A DNA stretch of 64,000 bases from an uncultured bacterium (GCA_963716205.1 OY970290.1:175417-239416); one strand, 5' to 3'; shown: positions 8,249 through 29,519, counted from the stretch's first letter. A program made the numbers and translations. Notes: generated from the sequence alone by a model not told the origin.

Positions 8249-8321
8249 GCCACCTTAGCTCAGTTGGTAGAGCAACGCTTTTGTAAAGCGAAGGTCCCCA
8301 GTTCAAGTCTGGGAGGTGGCT
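8249..8321 (+). tRNA. tRNA-Thr (anticodon UGU)
   Basis: Manual cloverleaf: acceptor GCCACCT/AGGTGGC (7 bp perfect), D arm GCTC-AGTTGGTA-GAGC, anticodon stem ACGCT/AGCGA with loop TTTGTAA (U33, anticodon TGT), T arm CCCAG-TTCAAGT-CTGGG, discriminator T then CC encoded. Confidence 0.8.
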
Positions 8322-8369
8322 CCGCAATCGAAGTTGGAAAAAGCCAACTTGTATCTTCAGACAAGCATC

Positions 8370-9905
8370 ATGGATTATAAAAACAGCATATATTATCGGG
8401 TAGGGAGGGCAAGCGATTTAACGGGCAAAGATCGCGCCATATATCGTTTCTTTGAAATGCTTCCGGGAATTTTGGCTTGGCTTACCATTATAGGAATTTT
8501 CTTTCTTTCTTTTTACAAGCCGTTTTATTGCGCGGTTTTCATTATCTTATTTGATATCTATTGGATTTTGAAAGTCGTCTATCTTTCGATATTTCTGCGC
8601 CAAAATTGGAAAAAGACGAAGCACAATATGTCCGTCAACTGGCATGAGATGCTTGCGAACATAAAATATGACCGGATTCATCAGATGGTTATTCTACCGT
8701 TTTATCACGAGTCGTGGGAAGTGGTCAAAGGAAGCCTCGATGCACTGCTTGATTGTGAATATGACAAGAAGAAATTCATTGTCGTCATCTCCGGCGAGGA
8801 AAGAAATAAATTATATTGTCTTGAAATCATTGAAAAAATAAAAAAGGAATATTCGGGGAAATTCGAACATTTGTTCTGCGTCATTCATCCTTCCAGTATA
8901 GCTGGCGAAATGCCGGGCAAAGGTTCCGCGATAGCGTATGCCGCGGAAGCAGCGCGAAAAGAAATTTTGGACAAAAACAATATTAAATACGAAGATGTGC
9001 TTGTTTCGGCATTTGATATCGACACGGTGGCGTATCCACAATATTTTGAATGCCTGACATGGAATTTCTTGACCTGCGAAGATCCACTCCATTCGTCATT
9101 TCAGCCCGTGCCGCTTTTCAACAATAATATCTGGCAGTCGCCGGCGCTTTCCCGCGTAGTTGCATTTTCCGCGACGTTCTGGCAGATGATCCAGCAGGAG
9201 CGCATCGACCGGTTGGTGACATTCTCATCACACTCGATATGTTTCAAAACACTTTATGAAATCGGCTATTGGCAGAAAAATATGGTTTCGGAAGATTCTC
9301 GTATTTTTTGGAATGCATTTATAGCAAACGACGGAAATTACAAAGTCGTGCCGCTTTGTTTCCCTGTATCGATGGATGCGAACCTCGCGCCGACATTCTG
9401 GCAAACGACTCAAAATGTCTATAAGCAGCAAAGGCGATGGGCATACGGCGTGGAAAACGGTCCGTATGTGTTCATGGGGTTTTTGAAAAACAAAAAAATT
9501 CCGAAAGCGAGAAAATTCAAATTGACTTTCATTCTTCTTGAAGGATATTGGTCTCTAGCGACAAATCCAATTGTTATTTTTTTTCTCGGATGGCTGCCAG
9601 TCGTTCTCGGCGGACGGGAATTCAATCGCACGGTTCTCTCATACAATCTTCCGATCATCACGCGAACGCTCATGACGATTTCCATGCTCGGTATTTTCCT
9701 TTCTTTGACTATTGCAATGAGTTTTCTACCGAAAGCGCCGACTGGAACGAAAAATATCAACAAAATAGCGATGGTCATTCAATGGATATTGATACCGATA
9801 ACTGTTATACTTTTCGGAGCAGTTCCGGCGCTTGATGCCCAGACACGCCTCGCGCTCGGCAAATATATGGGTTTTTGGATAACGCCGAAACACCGGAAAA
9901 AATAA
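8370..9905 (+). CDS. membrane-embedded family-2 glycosyltransferase, processive type (QxxRW motif)
   Basis: Start placed at ATG 8370 (ORF-track start 8316 overlaps the tRNA); N- and C-terminal TM helices flanking a cytoplasmic GT-A domain; YKQQRRWAYG = Q(Q/R)xRW motif of cellulose/chitin/hyaluronan-synthase-like GT2. Confidence 0.7.
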   Translation: MDYKNSIYYRVGRASDLTGKDRAIYRFFEMLPGILAWLTIIGIFFLSFYKPFYCAVFIILFDIYWILKVVYLSIFLRQNWKKTKHNMSVNWHEMLANIKYDRIHQMVILPFYHESWEVVKGSLDALLDCEYDKKKFIVVISGEERNKLYCLEIIEKIKKEYSGKFEHLFCVIHPSSIAGEMPGKGSAIAYAAEAARKEILDKNNIKYEDVLVSAFDIDTVAYPQYFECLTWNFLTCEDPLHSSFQPVPLFNNNIWQSPALSRVVAFSATFWQMIQQERIDRLVTFSSHSICFKTLYEIGYWQKNMVSEDSRIFWNAFIANDGNYKVVPLCFPVSMDANLAPTFWQTTQNVYKQQRRWAYGVENGPYVFMGFLKNKKIPKARKFKLTFILLEGYWSLATNPIVIFFLGWLPVVLGGREFNRTVLSYNLPIITRTLMTISMLGIFLSLTIAMSFLPKAPTGTKNINKIAMVIQWILIPITVILFGAVPALDAQTRLALGKYMGFWITPKHRKK

Positions 9906-9910
9906 ATCAC

Positions 9911-10801
9911 ATGGTTATTATCAAACGACAGATCAAAATTCTCATTTTTGTTTTATTATTCATTATTATCGCTCCGCTCGTAGTGCTTTATGCAAACGGC
10001 GACATTTTTGCCGATGGATGGAATATTCTTCCGACTGGCGGCATTTATGTGGAAAAAACCCCGACTGGCTCTGAAATATATTTGAATGGAAAATTAAAAG
10101 ATACGACAAGTTTTTTCAGCCGGAATTTTCTCATCAGAGATCTTGAGCCCGGGAATTATCAGGTTTCGGTCAAGAAAGATATGTATAATTCGTGGACGGA
10201 AAAAATCTCCGTTTCGACCAACTTGGTTGCCGATGCAAGCGTATTCATGCTGCCGGAAAAAGTGGATCAAAATGGCATTCTAAAATATTTGACTGCCGAT
10301 AATAATATTGCAACATCGACTATTACGAAAAAGAAAAATCCGGAGTATTCCGAAATATCGGAATTATTTGCCACCAGTTCGCTCGTCACTGTCGAGAAAC
10401 CTTTTTCGACTTCGACGATTGATTTTACGGATAATTTTGGCACAGATTATTCGCCGATCATGGATAATCAGCTCGGTTTGTGGCAGAAAAACGGAAAGAT
10501 ATATGTTCAATGGTTTGGCGATGACGATTCAGCGCCGGAATATCTCTGCAACAAGTTGGACTGCACCGAGTCACTACTCGTCTATGACAACGCAAGCGTG
10601 CCGACATCAATCGGTTTCCTGCCGGGATATTATGACGCCATTGTCATTGCTTCGGGAAATAAAATTTTTGCTGTTCAAGCGCAAAATTATTCCGCCAAAG
10701 TTCCACAAATAATTTATCAGGGCATTCATCCGGATTTCAGAATTCACGACGGAAATCTTTATATAAAAGACAACGGCGTTTTGTTGCAAGCGGTCATCTG
10801 A
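9911..10801 (+). CDS. membrane-anchored PEGA-domain protein, hypothetical
   Basis: Start at ATG 9911 (MVIIKRQIKILIFVLLFIIIAPL TM helix); FLIRDLEPGNYQVSVKKDMYNSWTEKISV resembles the PEGA domain; directly downstream of the GT2 gene. Confidence 0.5.
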   Translation: MVIIKRQIKILIFVLLFIIIAPLVVLYANGDIFADGWNILPTGGIYVEKTPTGSEIYLNGKLKDTTSFFSRNFLIRDLEPGNYQVSVKKDMYNSWTEKISVSTNLVADASVFMLPEKVDQNGILKYLTADNNIATSTITKKKNPEYSEISELFATSSLVTVEKPFSTSTIDFTDNFGTDYSPIMDNQLGLWQKNGKIYVQWFGDDDSAPEYLCNKLDCTESLLVYDNASVPTSIGFLPGYYDAIVIASGNKIFAVQAQNYSAKVPQIIYQGIHPDFRIHDGNLYIKDNGVLLQAVI

Positions 10802-10841
10802 AATCTTTTGATTTTCAGCCAATTTTCGCTATAATGGGCGG

Positions 10842-11582
10842 ATGGAGAAAGATGCTGAAAAAACGATTCATATCCACCCGATTACGCGGGTTATTGACGA
10901 TATCGCAAGGATTTTTTCTGAAATGGGTTTCGCCATTGTCGATGGACCGGAGCTTGAGACGGAATATTATAATTTCGATGCTTTGAACGTACCCAAAGAT
11001 CATCCGGCGCGCGACATGCAGGATACGTTTTGGATAAAAAACAAGCCGGGATTTTTGATGCGGACGCAGACGAGCAATGTGCAGATTCATTTCATGGAGA
11101 AAAACAAGCCCCCGTTCAAAATCATCTCGCCGGGAAGAGTTTTCCGGAATGAAGCGACTGACGCGCGGCATGAAGCAATGTTTCATCAAGTCGAGGGACT
11201 TTTGGTGGATAAAAATGTTTCCTTGGCGGATCTGAAATCAACCATTAATGCTTTTTTTGATAAATTTTTGGAAAAAGATGTCGATGTCAGATTTCGACCG
11301 AGTTATTTTCCTTTTGTCGAGCCCGGTGTTGAAGTCGACGTGACGTGCTTCAAATGCAAAGGAAAAGGCGAATGTCAGCTCTGCGGCAGCTCCGGCTGGC
11401 TTGAGCTCGGCGGAGCGGGAATGGTGTATTCGAAAGTTTTGAATGGTGTTGATATAAATCCAAACGAATGGCGCGGTTTTGCTTTTGGCGTCGGAGTGGA
11501 TCGGCTTGCAATGCTCAAATACGAAATAGATGATATCCGACTCTTATATTCTGGCGATCTGCGTTTAGTCAATCAATTTTAA
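10842..11582 (+). CDS. pheS: phenylalanine--tRNA ligase alpha subunit (short N-terminus, Bacillus-type Cys knuckle)
   Basis: 246 aa; [19 protein letters not shown]...[11 protein letters not shown]...[40 protein letters not shown]...[15 protein letters not shown] class II motifs. Confidence 0.9.
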
Positions 11583-11583
11583 T

Positions 11584-13950
11584 ATGAAAGTATCTTATAA
11601 CTGGCTCAATGAATATTTGAATGGCAAAGCGCCGAAGGCAGAAAAGGCGGCGGAGCTTTTGGATATGCATTCAATGGAAGTTGAAAATGTTGAAAAAGTC
11701 GGCAGTGATTTTGTCTTGGATGCGAAAGCGACGCCAAATTTGAATCACAGCTGCCTGTGTCATCGGGGGATTGCGCGGGAATTGGGAACCATCGTCGGAA
11801 TAAAAACAGAAAAATATTCGAGGAAGTTTAAGGATTTTGATACTGCAAAAACTTCAAAAAATTTTGTTGTAAAAATTGCTGACCCAAAATCATGCAGGAG
11901 ATATATTGGTAGGATCGTTGAAAATATCAAAGTCGGTCCGTCGCCAAAATGGCTTGCTGAAAAGCTTGAAATGATTGGTCAGCGATCGATCAACAATGTA
12001 GTCGATGCAACAAATTTTGTCATGCTCGAGATTGGTCAACCAATGCACGCGTTTGATGCAGATAAACTGGATAAAAAAGATATTTGTATCAACGTGCAGA
12101 ATGCAAAAACGGGAGATATGATAACAACACTTGATAAAAAGGAAATGGTTCTCAATGAAAATATTTTGTTGATTACCGACGGCAAAAATCCTTTGGCAAT
12201 CGCTGGCATCAAAGGCGGGAATTATGCGGAGCTTGATGCGAATACTACGAATATTGTTCTTGAATCGGCAAATTTTAATCCGGTTTTAATACGAAAAACC
12301 GCGCAAAAAATAAAGATTCAAACCGATGCTTCAAAACGATATGAAAATGATATCACTCCGGAGCTTTGCGGCGAAGCAATGGATATTTTGACGAAGCTTA
12401 TTGTGGAAATTGCCGGTACCAAAGATACAAAAGTTGGCGAGGCGATAGATAATTATCCGCGAAGAGCAAATCCGTACAAGCTTGGTATTTCTGCGCAGGA
12501 AGCAAGCGATATTATCGGTGTGAAAATATCTGATAAAGAAATCGAAAAAATATTCGACCGGTTTGATTTTGAATACAAAAAGGTAAAGCCGGTTGATGAG
12601 GTGTTGAAACTCGCTCAAAGTTTTGTCGGAGTTCCATACAAGCTTGGAGCAAGCATTTCCTATGATGCACCAAAAATTTTCGATTGTTCAGGTTTTGTCA
12701 GTTACTTATTTTCTCAAAGCGGAGTCCAAATTCCAAGAATATCTGCGGATCAATATATTTTTGGAAAAGAAGTGGTGGAAAAAGAATTACAGCCGGGCGA
12801 TATTGTTTTTTCAAATACCGGTGAAGGTAAAATATATTTTGAATCCATTGAATTTTTGCCGAAAACAAAAGTGCCTGGAGGCGTTGATCATTGTGGATTG
12901 TATCTTGGCGACGGAAAAGTGATTCATGCTTCTGAATTGACGAACGGAGTGACGGTAGAAGAATTAAAAAAGAGCAAAAGATTTGGGCATATTGTGGGTT
13001 GTTGCAGAATGTCTGATAATACTGGACGATTTGTCGTAACTGCGCCGGCGGAACGGCTTGATTTGCGGATCAAAGAAGATTTGGCGGAAGAAATCGGCAG
13101 AATCTATGGCTATGAAAAAATAAAAGATATTGAAATACCAAAATTGGCGAAGCCGGTAATGATAGATAAAAGTTTTGCATACAAAGAAAAAATCAGAAGA
13201 ATTCTTTATACTGAAGGTTTTTCAGAAGTAATGAATTATACGTTTGTTGCAAAAGGCGAGATAGAACTTGAGAATCCCTCATCACCAGAGCGGAAATTTT
13301 TGAGAGCAAACCTTGTGAATGGATTGGGTACTGCTCTTATATTAAACACATGGCATGCGGAGCTTATTGAGATGCCACAAATACGGATTTTTGAATTTGG
13401 ACACATTTTTACAGCAAAAGGGGAATACGATCATTTTGTTCTCGGCATTCAAACTCCCGGTATGAAAAATTCATCTGATAAAAAAGATCTCGAATCAATC
13501 ATCAAAATTCTTTCAGAAAAATTGGGCATTGAATTGAAAAAAATAAATACCGAAGAAAATATCGCTGAATTTGATTTTTCTGAAATAATTCAAAAATTAT
13601 CCGAACTCGCGGAATATGATTTCTCGGAAATCGGGAATGAAAATACAAAATTCAAAAAGATTTCCCAATATCCGTATATGATTCGCGACATTGCGGTATT
13701 CACTCCGGAAGGTACAAAAGCCGAAGCCGTGTTTTCAATTATCCAAAAAGAAGCGGGGAATTTGATGATAAAAAATCGCCTGTTTGATGTATTCACGAAA
13801 AAATTTTCCGATGGAAGCTCAAAAATTTCCTATGCGTATCGCCTGATATTCCAATCTTATGAGCGGACGCTTTCCGATGAGGAAATAAATACTATTATGG
13901 GAAAAATCACTAAAAAAATGAATGTTCATAATGGCTGGCAGGTCAGATAA
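11584..13950 (+). CDS. pheT: phenylalanine--tRNA ligase beta subunit with an inserted NlpC/P60 papain-like domain
   Basis: 788 aa; MKVSYNWLNEYL N-terminus, B3/4 (GQPMHAFDADKL), B5 and C-terminal FDX-ACB regions recognisable; residues about 335-480 (nt about 12585-13020) are an NlpC/P60 module (VGVPYKLG, DCSGFVSY, PRISADQY, LQPGDIVF, DHCGLYLGDGKVIHAS) inserted between B5 elements FDFEYKKV and RFVVTAPAERLDLRIKEDLAEEIGRIYGY. Confidence 0.85.
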   Translation: MKVSYNWLNEYLNGKAPKAEKAAELLDMHSMEVENVEKVGSDFVLDAKATPNLNHSCLCHRGIARELGTIVGIKTEKYSRKFKDFDTAKTSKNFVVKIADPKSCRRYIGRIVENIKVGPSPKWLAEKLEMIGQRSINNVVDATNFVMLEIGQPMHAFDADKLDKKDICINVQNAKTGDMITTLDKKEMVLNENILLITDGKNPLAIAGIKGGNYAELDANTTNIVLESANFNPVLIRKTAQKIKIQTDASKRYENDITPELCGEAMDILTKLIVEIAGTKDTKVGEAIDNYPRRANPYKLGISAQEASDIIGVKISDKEIEKIFDRFDFEYKKVKPVDEVLKLAQSFVGVPYKLGASISYDAPKIFDCSGFVSYLFSQSGVQIPRISADQYIFGKEVVEKELQPGDIVFSNTGEGKIYFESIEFLPKTKVPGGVDHCGLYLGDGKVIHASELTNGVTVEELKKSKRFGHIVGCCRMSDNTGRFVVTAPAERLDLRIKEDLAEEIGRIYGYEKIKDIEIPKLAKPVMIDKSFAYKEKIRRILYTEGFSEVMNYTFVAKGEIELENPSSPERKFLRANLVNGLGTALILNTWHAELIEMPQIRIFEFGHIFTAKGEYDHFVLGIQTPGMKNSSDKKDLESIIKILSEKLGIELKKINTEENIAEFDFSEIIQKLSELAEYDFSEIGNENTKFKKISQYPYMIRDIAVFTPEGTKAEAVFSIIQKEAGNLMIKNRLFDVFTKKFSDGSSKISYAYRLIFQSYERTLSDEEINTIMGKITKKMNVHNGWQVR

Positions 13951-13954
13951 ATAT

Positions 13955-14476
13955 ATGAAACTAAACATTCCTTATTATTCGCAATTTTTGGATGTTGATG
14001 ATCAATATTGGTCGCCGCGCGCATGCGGGCCTGTCAATTTATATACGGCGCTTATTTTTTTGAAAAAAGTGCCGGAAAATATGACGCTGATTGATCTCAT
14101 AAAAAAAATGAACAACGATGAAGGATATTATACGAACGGCTGGCGCCACGATGTATTTGTAAACACAGCGCATGAATTTGGTTTATTGAAAGCCCACCGA
14201 GAAGAAAAAATAGATTTTGATTCTGGACTTCTCAAAATAAAAGAAAATCTTGATGCAGGTTTTCCTGTTATTTTTTCTGTAATCAAAAGAACACTTGAGC
14301 AGACAAAATTTCACATGCTCCTTGCGATTGGATATGAACCAGAGAACAACAGGAGCATAAAAGGATTATATTATTACGATCCGGAAAGCACAGATAGAGA
14401 AAAAGGAAAAGATCATTTCGCAACAAAAGAAATGCTGGAAAAAGATTGGCGAAGAATGGCAATATTTTTTCAATAA
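13955..14476 (+). CDS. C39-like (papain-fold) cysteine peptidase domain protein, no signal peptide
   Basis: Start ATG 13955 (MKLNIPYYSQ...); IPYYSQ...W.PRACGPVNLYTALIFL (Cys) and KFHMLLAIGYEP...YYYDP (His) match the peptidase C39-like layout. Confidence 0.55.
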   Translation: MKLNIPYYSQFLDVDDQYWSPRACGPVNLYTALIFLKKVPENMTLIDLIKKMNNDEGYYTNGWRHDVFVNTAHEFGLLKAHREEKIDFDSGLLKIKENLDAGFPVIFSVIKRTLEQTKFHMLLAIGYEPENNRSIKGLYYYDPESTDREKGKDHFATKEMLEKDWRRMAIFFQ

Positions 14477-14521: not shown

Positions 14522-14794
14522 TTACTTCTTTTTTATCTCGTGTTTTTTCAAATATTGTTCATCCTCACGTTTCTTCACCTCTTTTTCCAGAAGATTCTTT
14601 ATATCTTTTTCCTTGAGATTGTGTTCTTTAGCAATATCTGAGATTTTCCAGCCGGATACATCTTTGATTTGTTTCTTCCACGTGATCATCCGCCGAGCCA
14701 GGTCCTCAATATCCATTTTGAGTTTTTCTTCCCCAATTTGTTTTGGATCTCTCGGTAATTCCTTCTTCCCAAAAAGAAGTCTTTTAATCACCAT
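14522..14794 (-). CDS. hypothetical small protein (possible HTH)
   Basis: 90 aa minus-strand ORF; WKISDIAKEHNLKEKDIKNLL resembles a helix-turn-helix; Lys/Glu-rich tail. Confidence 0.35.
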   Translation of the reverse strand: MVIKRLLFGKKELPRDPKQIGEEKLKMDIEDLARRMITWKKQIKDVSGWKISDIAKEHNLKEKDIKNLLEKEVKKREDEQYLKKHEIKKK

Positions 14795-27912: not shown

Positions 27913-28812
27913 ATGTCAAGCAGGCACCTTGCAAGATCAATAGTTCTCCAAACCGCCTTTGAGTGGGATTTTCGCAATCTGTCTCGGGATGAGGCCATTT
28001 CCTCGCTTTCGCGAAATGCAAAAGAATTCGGCGACGGCGATTCGGAAAAAACTTTTTCTGAAAATCTTTTGAAAGGCATCATTGATAAGAAGTCAGACCT
28101 TGATTCGATTATCGTCAAAGCTGCTCCGGACTGGCCGATTGAGAAAATTTCCATTGTCGACAGGAATATCCTGCGCATCGGGCTTTACGAGCTTCTTTTT
28201 TCCGACCGGAAAGAAGTGCCGGCAAAAGTCGCCATCAATGAAGCCATCGAACTTGCCAAAGTGTATGGCGGGGAAAAGTCCGGCGGTTTCATTAACGGCG
28301 TTCTCGGTACGATTTACAAAGAGCTCGGCGAGCCGGGCAAAGAAGAAGTTTCCAAAAAGCACAACAAAGACATTCCGTTTGAAAAAATGCCGATTAAGCG
28401 CCTTGCCGGTGCGGTCGTGTATGCTATCAAAGACAATAATATATATTTTGCTTTTGTTCATGATGTGTTTGGCAGATGGACGCTTTCGAAAGACAAAATA
28501 AAAGAGAATGAAGAACTTAAAGATGGCGCGATTCGAGGCGTAAAAGAAAAACTGGGCATTGATGTGACTATAGAAGAAGAACTTTTGAATAACGAATATA
28601 TTGCGAATCATCCGCAGGAAGGCAAAATCAGAAAGCAAGTCACATATTTTCTTGCACATGCAAAAATGGAAGAACTAAAACTTGGCGAGAGCGGCGGGCT
28701 TGACGATGCGCAATGGTTCAAGCTGCAGGATATTCAAACATTGAATTTTTACAACGACATCTTGCCGATTATCACAAAGGCGATTACCATCATCAGCAGC
28801 AGAAAGTCATAA
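27913..28812 (+). CDS. nusB: transcription antitermination factor NusB fused to a C-terminal NUDIX-like domain
   Basis: 299 aa; residues 1-140 NusB-like (ARSIVLQTAFEWDF..., VAINEAIELAKVYGGEKSGGFINGVLG); residues about 165-299 NUDIX-like (LAGAVVYAIKDNN...LSKDKIKENEELKDGAIRGVKEKLGIDV, degenerate Nudix box). Confidence 0.75.
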   Translation: MSSRHLARSIVLQTAFEWDFRNLSRDEAISSLSRNAKEFGDGDSEKTFSENLLKGIIDKKSDLDSIIVKAAPDWPIEKISIVDRNILRIGLYELLFSDRKEVPAKVAINEAIELAKVYGGEKSGGFINGVLGTIYKELGEPGKEEVSKKHNKDIPFEKMPIKRLAGAVVYAIKDNNIYFAFVHDVFGRWTLSKDKIKENEELKDGAIRGVKEKLGIDVTIEEELLNNEYIANHPQEGKIRKQVTYFLAHAKMEELKLGESGGLDDAQWFKLQDIQTLNFYNDILPIITKAITIISSRKS

Positions 28813-28814
28813 CT

Positions 28815-29519
28815 ATGCAACCGGATTTCTCAAAATTTGAAAAGACCATAGGAATAATCTTCAAGGATAAAAATCTCTTGAAGCAGGCTTTTACACATCG
28901 TTCATATTTGAATGAACACCGCGATCGCGAGCTCGTCCACAATGAACGTCTTGAATTTCTCGGCGACGCGGTGCTTGAGCTTATCGTGACTGAATATCTT
29001 TACCATAAATATCCGGATCAGACCGAGGGCGATCTAACTTCATATCGCTCGGCGCTCGTCAACGCCGTAACACTTTCCGATGCTGCAAGCAAAATCGACA
29101 TGAATGATTTTTTGCTTTTGTCAAAAGGCGAAGCGAAAGATATCGGCAAAGCAAGACAAATAATTCTGGCAAACACAATCGAAGCTTTGATTGGCGCAAT
29201 TTTCCTCGACCAAGGATACGAGACGGCAAAATATTTTATTTCAAACAACATTTTCATGCTGGTGGAAAAAATCGTCGAGGACAAAAGCTGGCTTGATGCC
29301 AAAAGCGAATTTCAGGAAAAAGCGCAGGATAACGAAGGTATTACGCCGTCATACAAAACGTTGAAAGAAGAAGGTCCGGATCACGACAAGAAATTCACCG
29401 TCGGAGTGTATTTGGAAGAGAAAAAAATTGCGGAAGGGGAAGGAAAGTCGAAGCAGGAAGCTGAACAGCTTGCCGCCAAAGCAGCACTCGAAGTGAAAGG
29501 ATGGGAAAATAATAAATAA
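28815..29519 (+). CDS. rnc: ribonuclease III
   Basis: Start ATG 28815 (MQPDFSKFEK...); RNase III signature ERLEFLGDAVLELIVTEYLY, C-terminal dsRBD (KSKQEAEQLAAKAALE). Confidence 0.9.
   Translation: MQPDFSKFEKTIGIIFKDKNLLKQAFTHRSYLNEHRDRELVHNERLEFLGDAVLELIVTEYLYHKYPDQTEGDLTSYRSALVNAVTLSDAASKIDMNDFLLLSKGEAKDIGKARQIILANTIEALIGAIFLDQGYETAKYFISNNIFMLVEKIVEDKSWLDAKSEFQEKAQDNEGITPSYKTLKEEGPDHDKKFTVGVYLEEKKIAEGEGKSKQEAEQLAAKAALEVKGWENNK

Follow-up and report, generated by a model that had tools for sequence, protein, structure and literature searches.

Few proteins are as highly conserved as the aminoacyl-tRNA synthetases. To our knowledge, foreign enzymatic domains nested within them are rare, and the known ones, such as CP1 and INS, serve fidelity. 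The NlpC/P60 family of cysteine peptidases (MEROPS C40), on the other side of the comparison made here, includes cytoplasmic muropeptide-recycling enzymes such as YkfC. Here, we describe a stretch of DNA of 64,000 nucleotides from an uncultured bacterium (GCA_963716205.1, OY970290.1:175417-239416; 'the window' below denotes this whole stretch), in which pheT, the gene for the beta subunit of phenylalanyl-tRNA synthetase (PheRS), carries an apparently active NlpC/P60 domain inside its B5 domain. This insert is a large family trait of the Patescibacteria and not a peculiarity of the window genome. Its parts belong to known families (PheT and NlpC/P60), and their combination appears to be new as far as a literature search shows: no description was found of an NlpC/P60-in-PheT architecture, of monomeric bacterial PheRS in the candidate phyla radiation, or of SrmL, and PheRS appears in PMC13622651 only as the pheS counter-selection marker. 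Public annotation lists such genes as 'phenylalanine--tRNA ligase beta subunit-related protein' or 'C40 family peptidase', and it is the nested architecture that accounts for these NCBI labels on essential genes.

The pheT gene of the window is a single unbroken open reading frame (ORF) of 788 amino acids at positions 11584-13950 of the plus strand, as the original prediction had stated, and the ORF, the sequence motifs and the Pfam matches all bore out its claim that an NlpC/P60 domain lies within B5. The position given there for the insert, 12585-13020, was right in location, but a little too narrow and one base off the reading frame. Alignment of the DNA with that of the closest insert-less relative (locus L172) delimited an insert of 447 nt at 12583-13029 on the plus strand, coding for 149 amino acids (V334-R482), opposite 12 nt in L172 that code for 'SSNS'; on either side, window positions 10801-12582 and 13030-13961 are collinear with L172. 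The insert stands in place of the beta-turn of 3-7 residues that joins two strands of the B5 hairpin (insert-less relatives read ...FEWKK-EGDE-IVIAVPNERLDLRIKEDL), at a point equivalent to the 'GQDE' turn at about residues 440-443 of an E. coli-type PheT (7n8y_B). All of the motifs quoted in the original prediction were found (FVGVPYKLGAS, FDCSGFVSY, PRISADQY, LQPGDIVF and VDHCGLYLGDGKVIHAS). Within PheT, NLPC_P60 (PF00877) matched residues 349-464 (3e-20, 72.5 bits), and the excised segment alone gave a clear match at 8.7e-22 and 77.5 bits (cut-off 23). Matches of the insert in NCBIfam were partial and fell only on peptidoglycan endopeptidases (RipB, p60/Iap, RipC, MepS and EntFM). With respect to aminoacyl-tRNA editing and deacylase domains, Pfam, NCBIfam and the Foldseek matches listed gave only NlpC/P60 types and none of the YbaK, AlaX, DTD or LRAT type.

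Structure prediction of the whole PheT with AlphaFold2 gave a mean predicted local distance difference test score (pLDDT) of 90.7, with 91-97 over the insert. When modelled alone, the insert reached a pLDDT of 96.4 and a predicted template modelling score of 0.91 and is thus an independently folding globular domain. The full model matched PheRS beta chains (E ~1e-50) and, separately, NlpC/P60 domains (E ~1e-10), which is what a nested-domain protein should give. Foldseek with the insert returned 63 matches in the PDB at E ≤ 1e-3, of which the best 50 were essentially all NlpC/P60 domains; the top match was Acd24020 of C. difficile (7cfl; E 3e-12, 33% identity, TMt 0.89-0.92), and others were YkfC of B. 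cereus (3h41), AvPCP and NpPCP (2hbw, 2evr), MepS, LytE, CwlO and RipB. These are catalytic domains of peptidoglycan D,L-endopeptidases, and the model has their papain-like alpha+beta fold, with a root-mean-square deviation of 1.6-2.4 in the match to 7cfl. With known C40 endopeptidases, the insert shares the fold (E 3e-12 to 1e-9 and TMt up to 0.92 in Foldseek), the Cys-His-His triad, the Asp-Cys-Ser motif and a PF00877 score well above cut-off, but it is nested in a synthetase beta-hairpin instead of forming a separate protein or an N- or C-terminal fusion. It also lacks SH3b, LysM and a signal peptide, has a family signature of its own (GAS..DAP..FDCS) and a conserved extra hairpin of ~20 residues before the catalytic His, and is only 22-34% identical to solved structures.

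The catalytic residues were conserved throughout. Cys368 (codon 12685-12687, plus strand, motif FDCS) and His436 (codon 12889-12891, plus strand, motif VDHCG) were found in all 91 insert-carrying PheT homologues that we aligned, as were D367, S369, R385, D389, G405 and D406, and the third triad residue, His448 (codon 12925-12927, plus strand, motif VIHAS), was kept in at least 90% of these carriers. More widely, the Cys motif FxC[SA] occurred in all of the stand-alone mini-proteins (71) and fusion proteins (13) described below and in 163 of 166 PheT-type proteins, with FVCY in a further one. Judged from its sequence, the insert is a complete C40 cysteine peptidase domain that is apparently active.

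The insertion leaves the domains, the editing residues and the inferred Mg2+ motif of the host protein intact. PheT scored 436.8 bits against the TIGR00472 pheT_bact equivalog (cut-off 402.65) and holds all four canonical Pfam domains in the usual order (B3_4, B5, CLM and FDX-ACB), coded on the plus strand. The B3/4 editing domain spans residues 104-278 (11893-12417; B3_4 9.2e-63). The N-terminal half of B5, whose last strand is FEYKK, spans residues 297-333 (12472-12582), as placed by alignment with the E. coli-type PheT up to its residue 436 and by collinearity with L172 up to 12582; the C-terminal half, a strand (FVVTAP) followed by a helix, spans residues 483-512 (13030-13119), and the Pfam B5 match is limited to profile positions 31-67 (residues 475-510). 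A catalytic-like module (residues 513-690) and the FDX-ACB anticodon-binding domain (residues 691-788) complete the protein (13120-13947; PF17759 3.1e-09 and PF03147 4.3e-20), with Pfam ranges of 528-615 for tRNA_synthFbeta and 694-788 for FDX-ACB. In the alignment with 7n8y_B, the E. coli residues N254, H265, G318, E334, T354 and A356, which we take to form the editing site of B3/4, correspond to N144, H155, G211, E227, T247 and A249 of the window PheT, and the first five of these were invariant in an alignment of 68 sequences that comprised carriers and non-carriers. Likewise, D493, D499, E502 and E503 align with D454, D460, E463 and E464, presumably the Mg2+ ligands shared with the alpha subunit at the alpha/beta interface (as annotated in UniProt); this motif was also invariant in carriers and non-carriers, and the helix that bears it begins 11 residues past the end of the insert.

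Upstream of pheT and separated from it by 2 nt, pheS (10842-11582, plus strand; tRNA-synt_2d 3.9e-97) encodes a PheRS alpha subunit of 246 amino acids that matched positions 69-322 of TIGR00468 (305.8 bits, cut-off 237.45) and is without the N-terminal ~68 residues of that model, the coiled-coil tRNA-binding arm. The OB-fold tRNA_bind domain (B2) is typical of the PheT family, though not essential. As the original prediction had noted, it is missing from the window PheT, where PF01588 gave no match and residues ~43-154 of the E. coli-type protein have no counterpart; one carrier, P0115 (901 amino acids), does possess it. With both the arm of PheS and B2 of PheT missing, the window PheRS has lost two tRNA-contacting elements. 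Overall, the window PheT resembles the beta subunits of the bacterial (alpha-beta)2 enzymes of T. thermophilus (1pys/2iy5) and E. coli (3pco) in domain order, TIGR00472 membership, adjacency to pheS, and editing and inferred Mg2+ residues, but differs from them in the 149-residue foreign enzyme within B5, in the loss of B2 and in its partner PheS, which has no N-terminal coiled coil. The synteny rpsB-tsf...pheS-pheT-gyrB was common to carriers and non-carriers, and no second copy of pheT was seen within the 64-kb window; as the gene adjoins pheS at this conserved locus, we took it as the apparent housekeeping copy.

A survey of the 120 best PheT homologues showed an insert in 91, always at the same site, with only the short turn in the other 29. 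The inserts were 146-152 amino acids long, rarely 156 or 168, and carriers extended down to 47% overall PheT identity. All named sources were Patescibacteria (Paceibacterota, Minisyncoccia, Taylorbacteria, Yonathbacteria, Zambryskibacteria, Wolfebacteria and Parcubacteria). A HMMER search with the insert alone in a library clustered at 50% gave 101 matches at E ≤ 1e-30, most of them proteins of 770-820 amino acids with the domain at ~330-480. Among the matches listed from species-representative genomes, the loci whose match extended over the B5 flanks were all from Patescibacteria, while ordinary NlpC/P60 proteins of Actinobacteria and Firmicutes matched in the catalytic core only (E ~1e-20). 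Dozens of independent contigs in NCBI, JGI, ENA and Logan, some of them longer than 700 kb, had the same architecture, and we thus rejected a chimeric assembly, a possibility that the original prediction had raised.

Within this sample, insert-less PheTs were scattered in at least eight places among the carriers in a neighbour-joining tree of the flanks, and several were nearer to a carrier than to any other insert-less protein (P0088 lay at 0.136 from carrier P0012 and at 0.203 from the nearest insert-less PheT); insert-less PheTs of 75-79% identity occupy the same locus. The divergence of the insert was correlated with that of its flanks (r = 0.67), which fits mainly vertical descent, and its mean pairwise identity in the 91 carriers was 0.59, compared to 0.45-0.80 for the other PheT domains. 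In one outlier pair, P0113/P0119, the flanks were 26% divergent and the inserts 1.3%; such pairs suggest occasional recombination between lineages, or chimeric short metagenomic contigs. On the simplest reading, the insert arose once and was then repeatedly lost or removed by allelic replacement, although the homologues were ranked by bit score, which favours carriers, so that the sample does not settle the ancestral polarity. Overall, these results show that the trait is old and has been passed on for the most part vertically within a large group of Patescibacteria, under purifying selection that has preserved the catalytic residues.

A second peptidase gene accompanies the insert. Starting 5 nt past the pheT stop, the window encodes a Peptidase_C39_2 protein of 173 amino acids from the ATG at 13955 (13955-14476, plus strand; PF13529 4.9e-11, 43.8 bits, cut-off 24). 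PF13529 was matched by all 12 orthologues, in which S9, Q10, C24 and H120 were invariant and D142 was kept in at least 90%. The protein thus resembles Peptidase_C39_2/YvpB-like proteins in its profile match and its catalytic-type Gln, Cys, His and Asp, and a sequence search of the PDB found a sole solved relative, the uncharacterised 'putative C39-like peptidase' 3erv; it differs in being a small, single-domain, cytoplasmic form, in belonging to a small family confined to Patescibacteria, and in being linked specifically to the B5::NlpC/P60 module by adjacency or fusion. In the slot between pheT and gyrB, C39_2 was present in 10 of 14 insert-carrying loci (the window, L001, L010, L012, L013, L014, L016, L017, L020 and L023) and in none of five insert-less loci (L004, L089, L090, L091 and L172), where the slot was empty or held a small ORF or a VanX-like M15 peptidase (one-sided Fisher ~0.01, uncorrected for shared ancestry). 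Exactly two indels separate the window from L172, namely the insert and the C39_2 region. Using identical contig size as a proxy for location on the same contig, 16 further carriers were paired with a member of the C39_2 family, compared to 0 of 29 insert-less PheTs. At least nine proteins of ~392-399 amino acids hold both PF00877 and PF13529; in one of them, from L006 (P0352), we verified directly that the B5::NlpC/P60 module and C39_2 form one polypeptide, encoded away from pheS. Such fusions are Rosetta-stone evidence of a functional link between the two enzymes.

Neither PheT nor the downstream C39_2 protein has a hydrophobic stretch that might serve as a signal peptide or transmembrane helix, and none of the wall-binding domains LysM, SH3b and CW_binding was found in these two proteins or in the mini-proteins; C39_2 proteins and mini-proteins begin directly at their domains. 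The lack of a signal peptide and the location inside an essential cytosolic enzyme place the insert, by inference, in the cytoplasm, which agrees with the original description of a cytoplasmic papain-like hydrolase grafted onto an essential synthetase. As a separate observation on the pheT-gyrB slot, the insert-less locus L004 encodes, 7 nt past the pheT stop, a Peptidase_M15 protein of 219 amino acids (L004:7936-8595) with weak similarity to VanX/D-Ala-D-Ala dipeptidases, and different wall-peptide enzymes seem to occupy this slot in different genomes.

The search with the insert also found proteins of 186-247 amino acids that start at the N-terminus of B5 (M..YKIGFS), contain the NlpC/P60 domain with its Cys, His and His, and end just past the C-terminal helix of B5. 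For most of these minis, as we call them, an origin as gene fragments was rejected on the basis of their own Met at the B5 N-terminus, their end past the B5 C-terminal helix, and their diverged tails. The stand-alone family comprised at least 120 clusters at 90% identity, and the equivalent of H448 (H152) was invariant in an alignment of 25 sequences (A4) consisting of the window and minis. In L007/L024 (Parcubacteria bacterium C7867-005), L008 and L022, the syntenic locus encodes a fusion of PheS with FDX-ACB of 382-395 amino acids followed by a mini; in L007 the two genes overlap by ATGA, and the order in L022 is PheS::FDX-ACB, mini, C39_2, gyrB. Across all such loci (L007:4856-6004, L008:4813-6000 on the minus strand, L022:3833-4981, and L092-L171) the fusion is 378-400 amino acids long. 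A metagenome scan found at least 80 PheS::FDX-ACB loci, and a mini follows in the subclade closest to L007. Minis of 194-247 amino acids were found after PheS::FDX-ACB in L007/L024, L008, L022, L092-L096, L098, L099, L114 and L116, with C39_2 also present in five of the loci from L092 onwards. At about 60 of the 80 loci listed there was no mini at the locus and gyrB followed directly, and we thus rejected the mini as an obligate partner of monomeric PheRS. No pheT-type gene adjoined PheS::FDX-ACB at any locus examined, the locus itself being what was covered.

These fusion proteins resemble mitochondrial monomeric PheRS (FARS2, 3cmq, TIGR00469) in having a PheS core fused to FDX-ACB with no adjacent pheT, but they are bacterial and score just under the cut-offs of TIGR00469 (248.9; cut-off 258.35) and NF051887, the 'PheS-related mystery ligase SrmL' (261; cut-off 300), and one subclade then has a vestigial pheT that codes only for B5::NlpC/P60. 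When catalytic cores were placed in a neighbour-joining tree, the B5-linked domains all stood apart from ordinary secreted NlpC/P60 domains, and most minis and all of the fusions with C39_2 formed a derived clade within the PheT-embedded diversity; with no bootstrap and short internal branches, this tree is only suggestive. The simplest history would be that a monomeric-type PheRS made pheT dispensable, that pheT was then trimmed from both ends to B5::NlpC/P60 and kept for its own sake, and that in most lineages the module was finally lost from the locus or moved elsewhere. We also noted two subtypes of mini in A4, one with Ser in place of the Asp before the catalytic Cys (FSCSS) and AVYKNPSSMR instead of GKPYKRGASV, the other with an extra loop of 19 residues (IIHTEGSYFSKVLGKEVKEE) before the catalytic His. 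In P0123 (233 amino acids), B5::NlpC/P60 is joined straight to the last ~10 residues of PheT (...MNAHKALQV); it looks like a pheT with an internal deletion and may be an intermediate toward a mini-gene, or a pseudogene.

We favour the reading that the insert and the C39-like protein make up an autonomous pair of cytoplasmic peptidases for which PheRS is the host and not the beneficiary, and give it a probability of about 0.5. The insert would then be an autonomous hydrolase that works with a co-transcribed C39-like cysteine peptidase, and PheRS would be a constitutively expressed, stable carrier and not a partner in aminoacylation or editing. The original prediction had offered editing, deacylation or an unrelated moonlighting role as the added activity, and it is the last of these that we prefer. 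That PheRS does not need the insert is supported by the insert-less PheTs at the same locus and by the editing residues and inferred Mg2+ motif that are invariant in both groups. The autonomy of the module is supported by the mini that is kept without PheT, by the nesting of minis in PheT-embedded diversity, and by the L006 fusion away from pheS. By homology to D,L-endopeptidases, including the cytoplasmic YkfC, the likeliest chemistry would be cleavage of gamma-D-glutamyl-diamino-acid (muropeptide-type) or similar isopeptide bonds, with the C39-like enzyme cutting a second bond. The outcome would be a two-step breakdown of wall-derived or imported peptides, and recycling or salvage of amino acids in auxotrophic bacteria; within this reading, we give a probability of perhaps one-third to muropeptides specifically as the substrate.

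Several points weigh against a peptidase pair of this kind. Its substrate is assigned by homology only, and the signature and extra hairpin that distinguish the insert mean that its specificity may differ from that of known D,L-endopeptidases. No close relative of the C39_2 partner is characterised and the gene is missing at 4 of the 14 carrier loci, the Fisher value of ~0.01 ignores phylogenetic non-independence, and the neighbourhood showed neither a transporter for muropeptides nor a gene for their recycling. Moreover, the module has never shed its B5 halves, even where it stands alone, and minis often overlap PheS::FDX-ACB by their start and stop codons, so that the module could still dock to PheRS for a PheRS-related purpose.

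This last point leads to the alternative that fared best, which we nonetheless consider unlikely: that the insert is a thiol hydrolase or transferase directed at aminoacyl-tRNA, providing extra or trans editing, deacylation of D-aminoacyl- or N-acyl-Phe-tRNA, or transfer of Phe through a Cys thioester. Papain-like thiol enzymes hydrolyse esters readily, and their superfamily includes acyltransferases (LRAT). From the insert it is 11 residues to the first inferred Mg2+ ligand in the helix at the alpha/beta interface, and minis keep the B5 halves and directly follow a PheS::FDX-ACB that has no editing domain, with stop and start codons overlapping. In being a hydrolytic domain that sits in-frame in a synthetase and folds independently, the insert resembles the inserted editing domains CP1 (LeuRS, IleRS and ValRS) and INS (ProRS) and the appended trans-editing-like domains AlaX and YbaK. 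However, those domains have no sequence or fold relation to the insert, act on aminoacyl-tRNA and are near-universal in their families, whereas the insert is of a peptidase family, is missing from several scattered PheT lineages, comes with a partner peptidase, persists in the absence of the synthetase and probably serves another purpose. The intact B3/4 residues, invariant in carriers, also speak against an editing role, and for the same reason we rejected replacement of a decayed editing site. In addition, the module is mildly acidic (mean net charge -2.8, isoelectric point ~6), unlike the tRNA-binding FDX-ACB (+6 and 9.7), its profile and fold matches are all to peptidoglycan endopeptidases, and it is fused to a C39-like peptidase, in one case away from pheS. 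Most of the monomeric-type PheRS loci, ~60 of the 80 listed, do without it. The editing or deacylase role put forward in the original prediction was accordingly not upheld.

Less probable again is a broader version, in which the module is a true PheRS subunit in every state, the mini being a vestigial mini-beta bound to the monomeric PheS::FDX-ACB, and its thiol site acts on Phe-adenylate or Phe-tRNA made a few tens of angstroms away, as a novel type of proofreading or deacylase site or as an aminoacyl-thioester relay. In the relay variant, Phe could be passed to a peptide or wall-precursor acceptor that is then processed by the C39-like partner. If true, this would be a previously unknown class of chemistry coupled to an aminoacyl-tRNA synthetase, and the series of loci would document a stepwise change of the heterotetrameric bacterial PheRS into a mitochondrial-type monomer.

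We regard with similar doubt a role as a peptidoglycan hydrolase outside the cytoplasm, acting on the cell's own or a host's wall after non-classical release or lysis of some cells, for which PheRS would be an abundant vehicle. Autolysins are the nearest solved structures, the VanX-like M15 peptidase after pheT in one insert-less locus indicates that wall-peptide enzymes do visit the slot, and Patescibacteria are epibionts that must breach host envelopes (PMC11665869, PMC10633639). Such a role is hard to reconcile with the lack of a signal peptide, transmembrane segment or wall-binding domain in PheT, minis and C39_2; the stand-alone minis, too, carry no export signals, and an enzyme buried in an essential cytosolic heterotetramer would make a poor secreted effector. 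A non-catalytic or regulatory function, in which the domain binds a muropeptide or other small ligand and tunes PheRS or translation to wall or nutrient status, or stabilises B5, appears improbable. Non-catalytic NlpC/P60 domains do exist (RipD was among the fold and profile matches) and a site beside the alpha/beta interface could pass on a signal, but the Cys, His and His are almost universally kept over deep divergence, unlike in RipD-type pseudoenzymes, and the module is retained where PheT has gone and is linked to another enzyme whose catalytic set is intact. That the insert is a selfish or neutral element (intein-like or a mobile cassette) that does nothing for the cell, or an artefact of assembly or annotation, a reading to which the patchy presence among close relatives and the near-identical inserts in the diverged flanks of P0113/P0119 might point, is very improbable and already largely refuted by the lack of Hint, intein or endonuclease matches and of terminal repeats flanking the insert, by junctions (KK/VKP and NTGR/FVV, at K333/V334 and R482/F483, as read from the sequence) that are not intein splice junctions, by a GC content like that of the rest of pheT, by the correlation of insert with flank divergence, by the conserved length and catalytic residues, by the dozens of independent contigs from four sources, and by retention as a stand-alone gene.

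These results show that much of the ultra-small Patescibacteria harbours a cell-wall-type cysteine peptidase within an essential synthetase, and that this peptidase outlives its host subunit. The nested peptidase would surprise a specialist in aminoacyl-tRNA synthetases, while its function is inferential. The favoured peptidase pair points to an unrecognised cytoplasmic two-peptidase system in organisms of largely unknown physiology (auxotrophy, epibiosis and wall turnover), and would provide a testable function for genes whose annotations, 'PheT-related protein' and 'hypothetical or C39 peptidase', are uninformative at present. In addition, one syntenic locus was found in four states, namely pheT without insert, pheT with insert and C39_2, PheS::FDX-ACB with a mini-beta, and PheS::FDX-ACB alone, which is an unusually clear natural series for the reductive evolution of PheRS toward a mitochondrial-type architecture.

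Other features of the region were also noted. A promoter-like site just 5' of pheS (TTGATT-16-TATAAT, 10808-10835, plus strand) is a candidate start of a pheS-pheT-C39_2 operon; it is a consensus match only, and such sites occur in the region at the frequency expected from shuffled sequence. A tRNA gene (8249-8321) lies directly 5' of genes for a family-2 glycosyltransferase (GT2; 529 amino acids) and a PEGA-domain protein (308 amino acids) at 8316-10801, and this pair precedes pheS in many related loci, so that the synteny GT2-PEGA-pheS-pheT is kept. In one carrier, genes for an S-adenosylmethionine-dependent methyltransferase and a PemK-family toxin lie between pheS and pheT (L003:4521-5522). 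Between C39_2 and gyrB, the window has a Lys/Glu-rich ORF of 90 amino acids on the minus strand (14522-14794), where the GC skew is strongly negative; the counterpart of this ORF in L172, also on the minus strand, has 83 amino acids and an unrelated sequence. The gyrB ORF itself is 1091 amino acids long in L119 and L121 (from 4923), compared to ~690 elsewhere, which may mean an intein or other insertion, and is split into 2-3 ORFs in L001:9764-11852 and L008:6641-8701. Further along the window, one ORF (27913-28812) joins a NusB domain (residues 7-136) to a NUDIX hydrolase domain (residues 187-281) in an unusual fusion, and an RNase III ORF (28713-29519) overlaps it by ~100 nt as listed.

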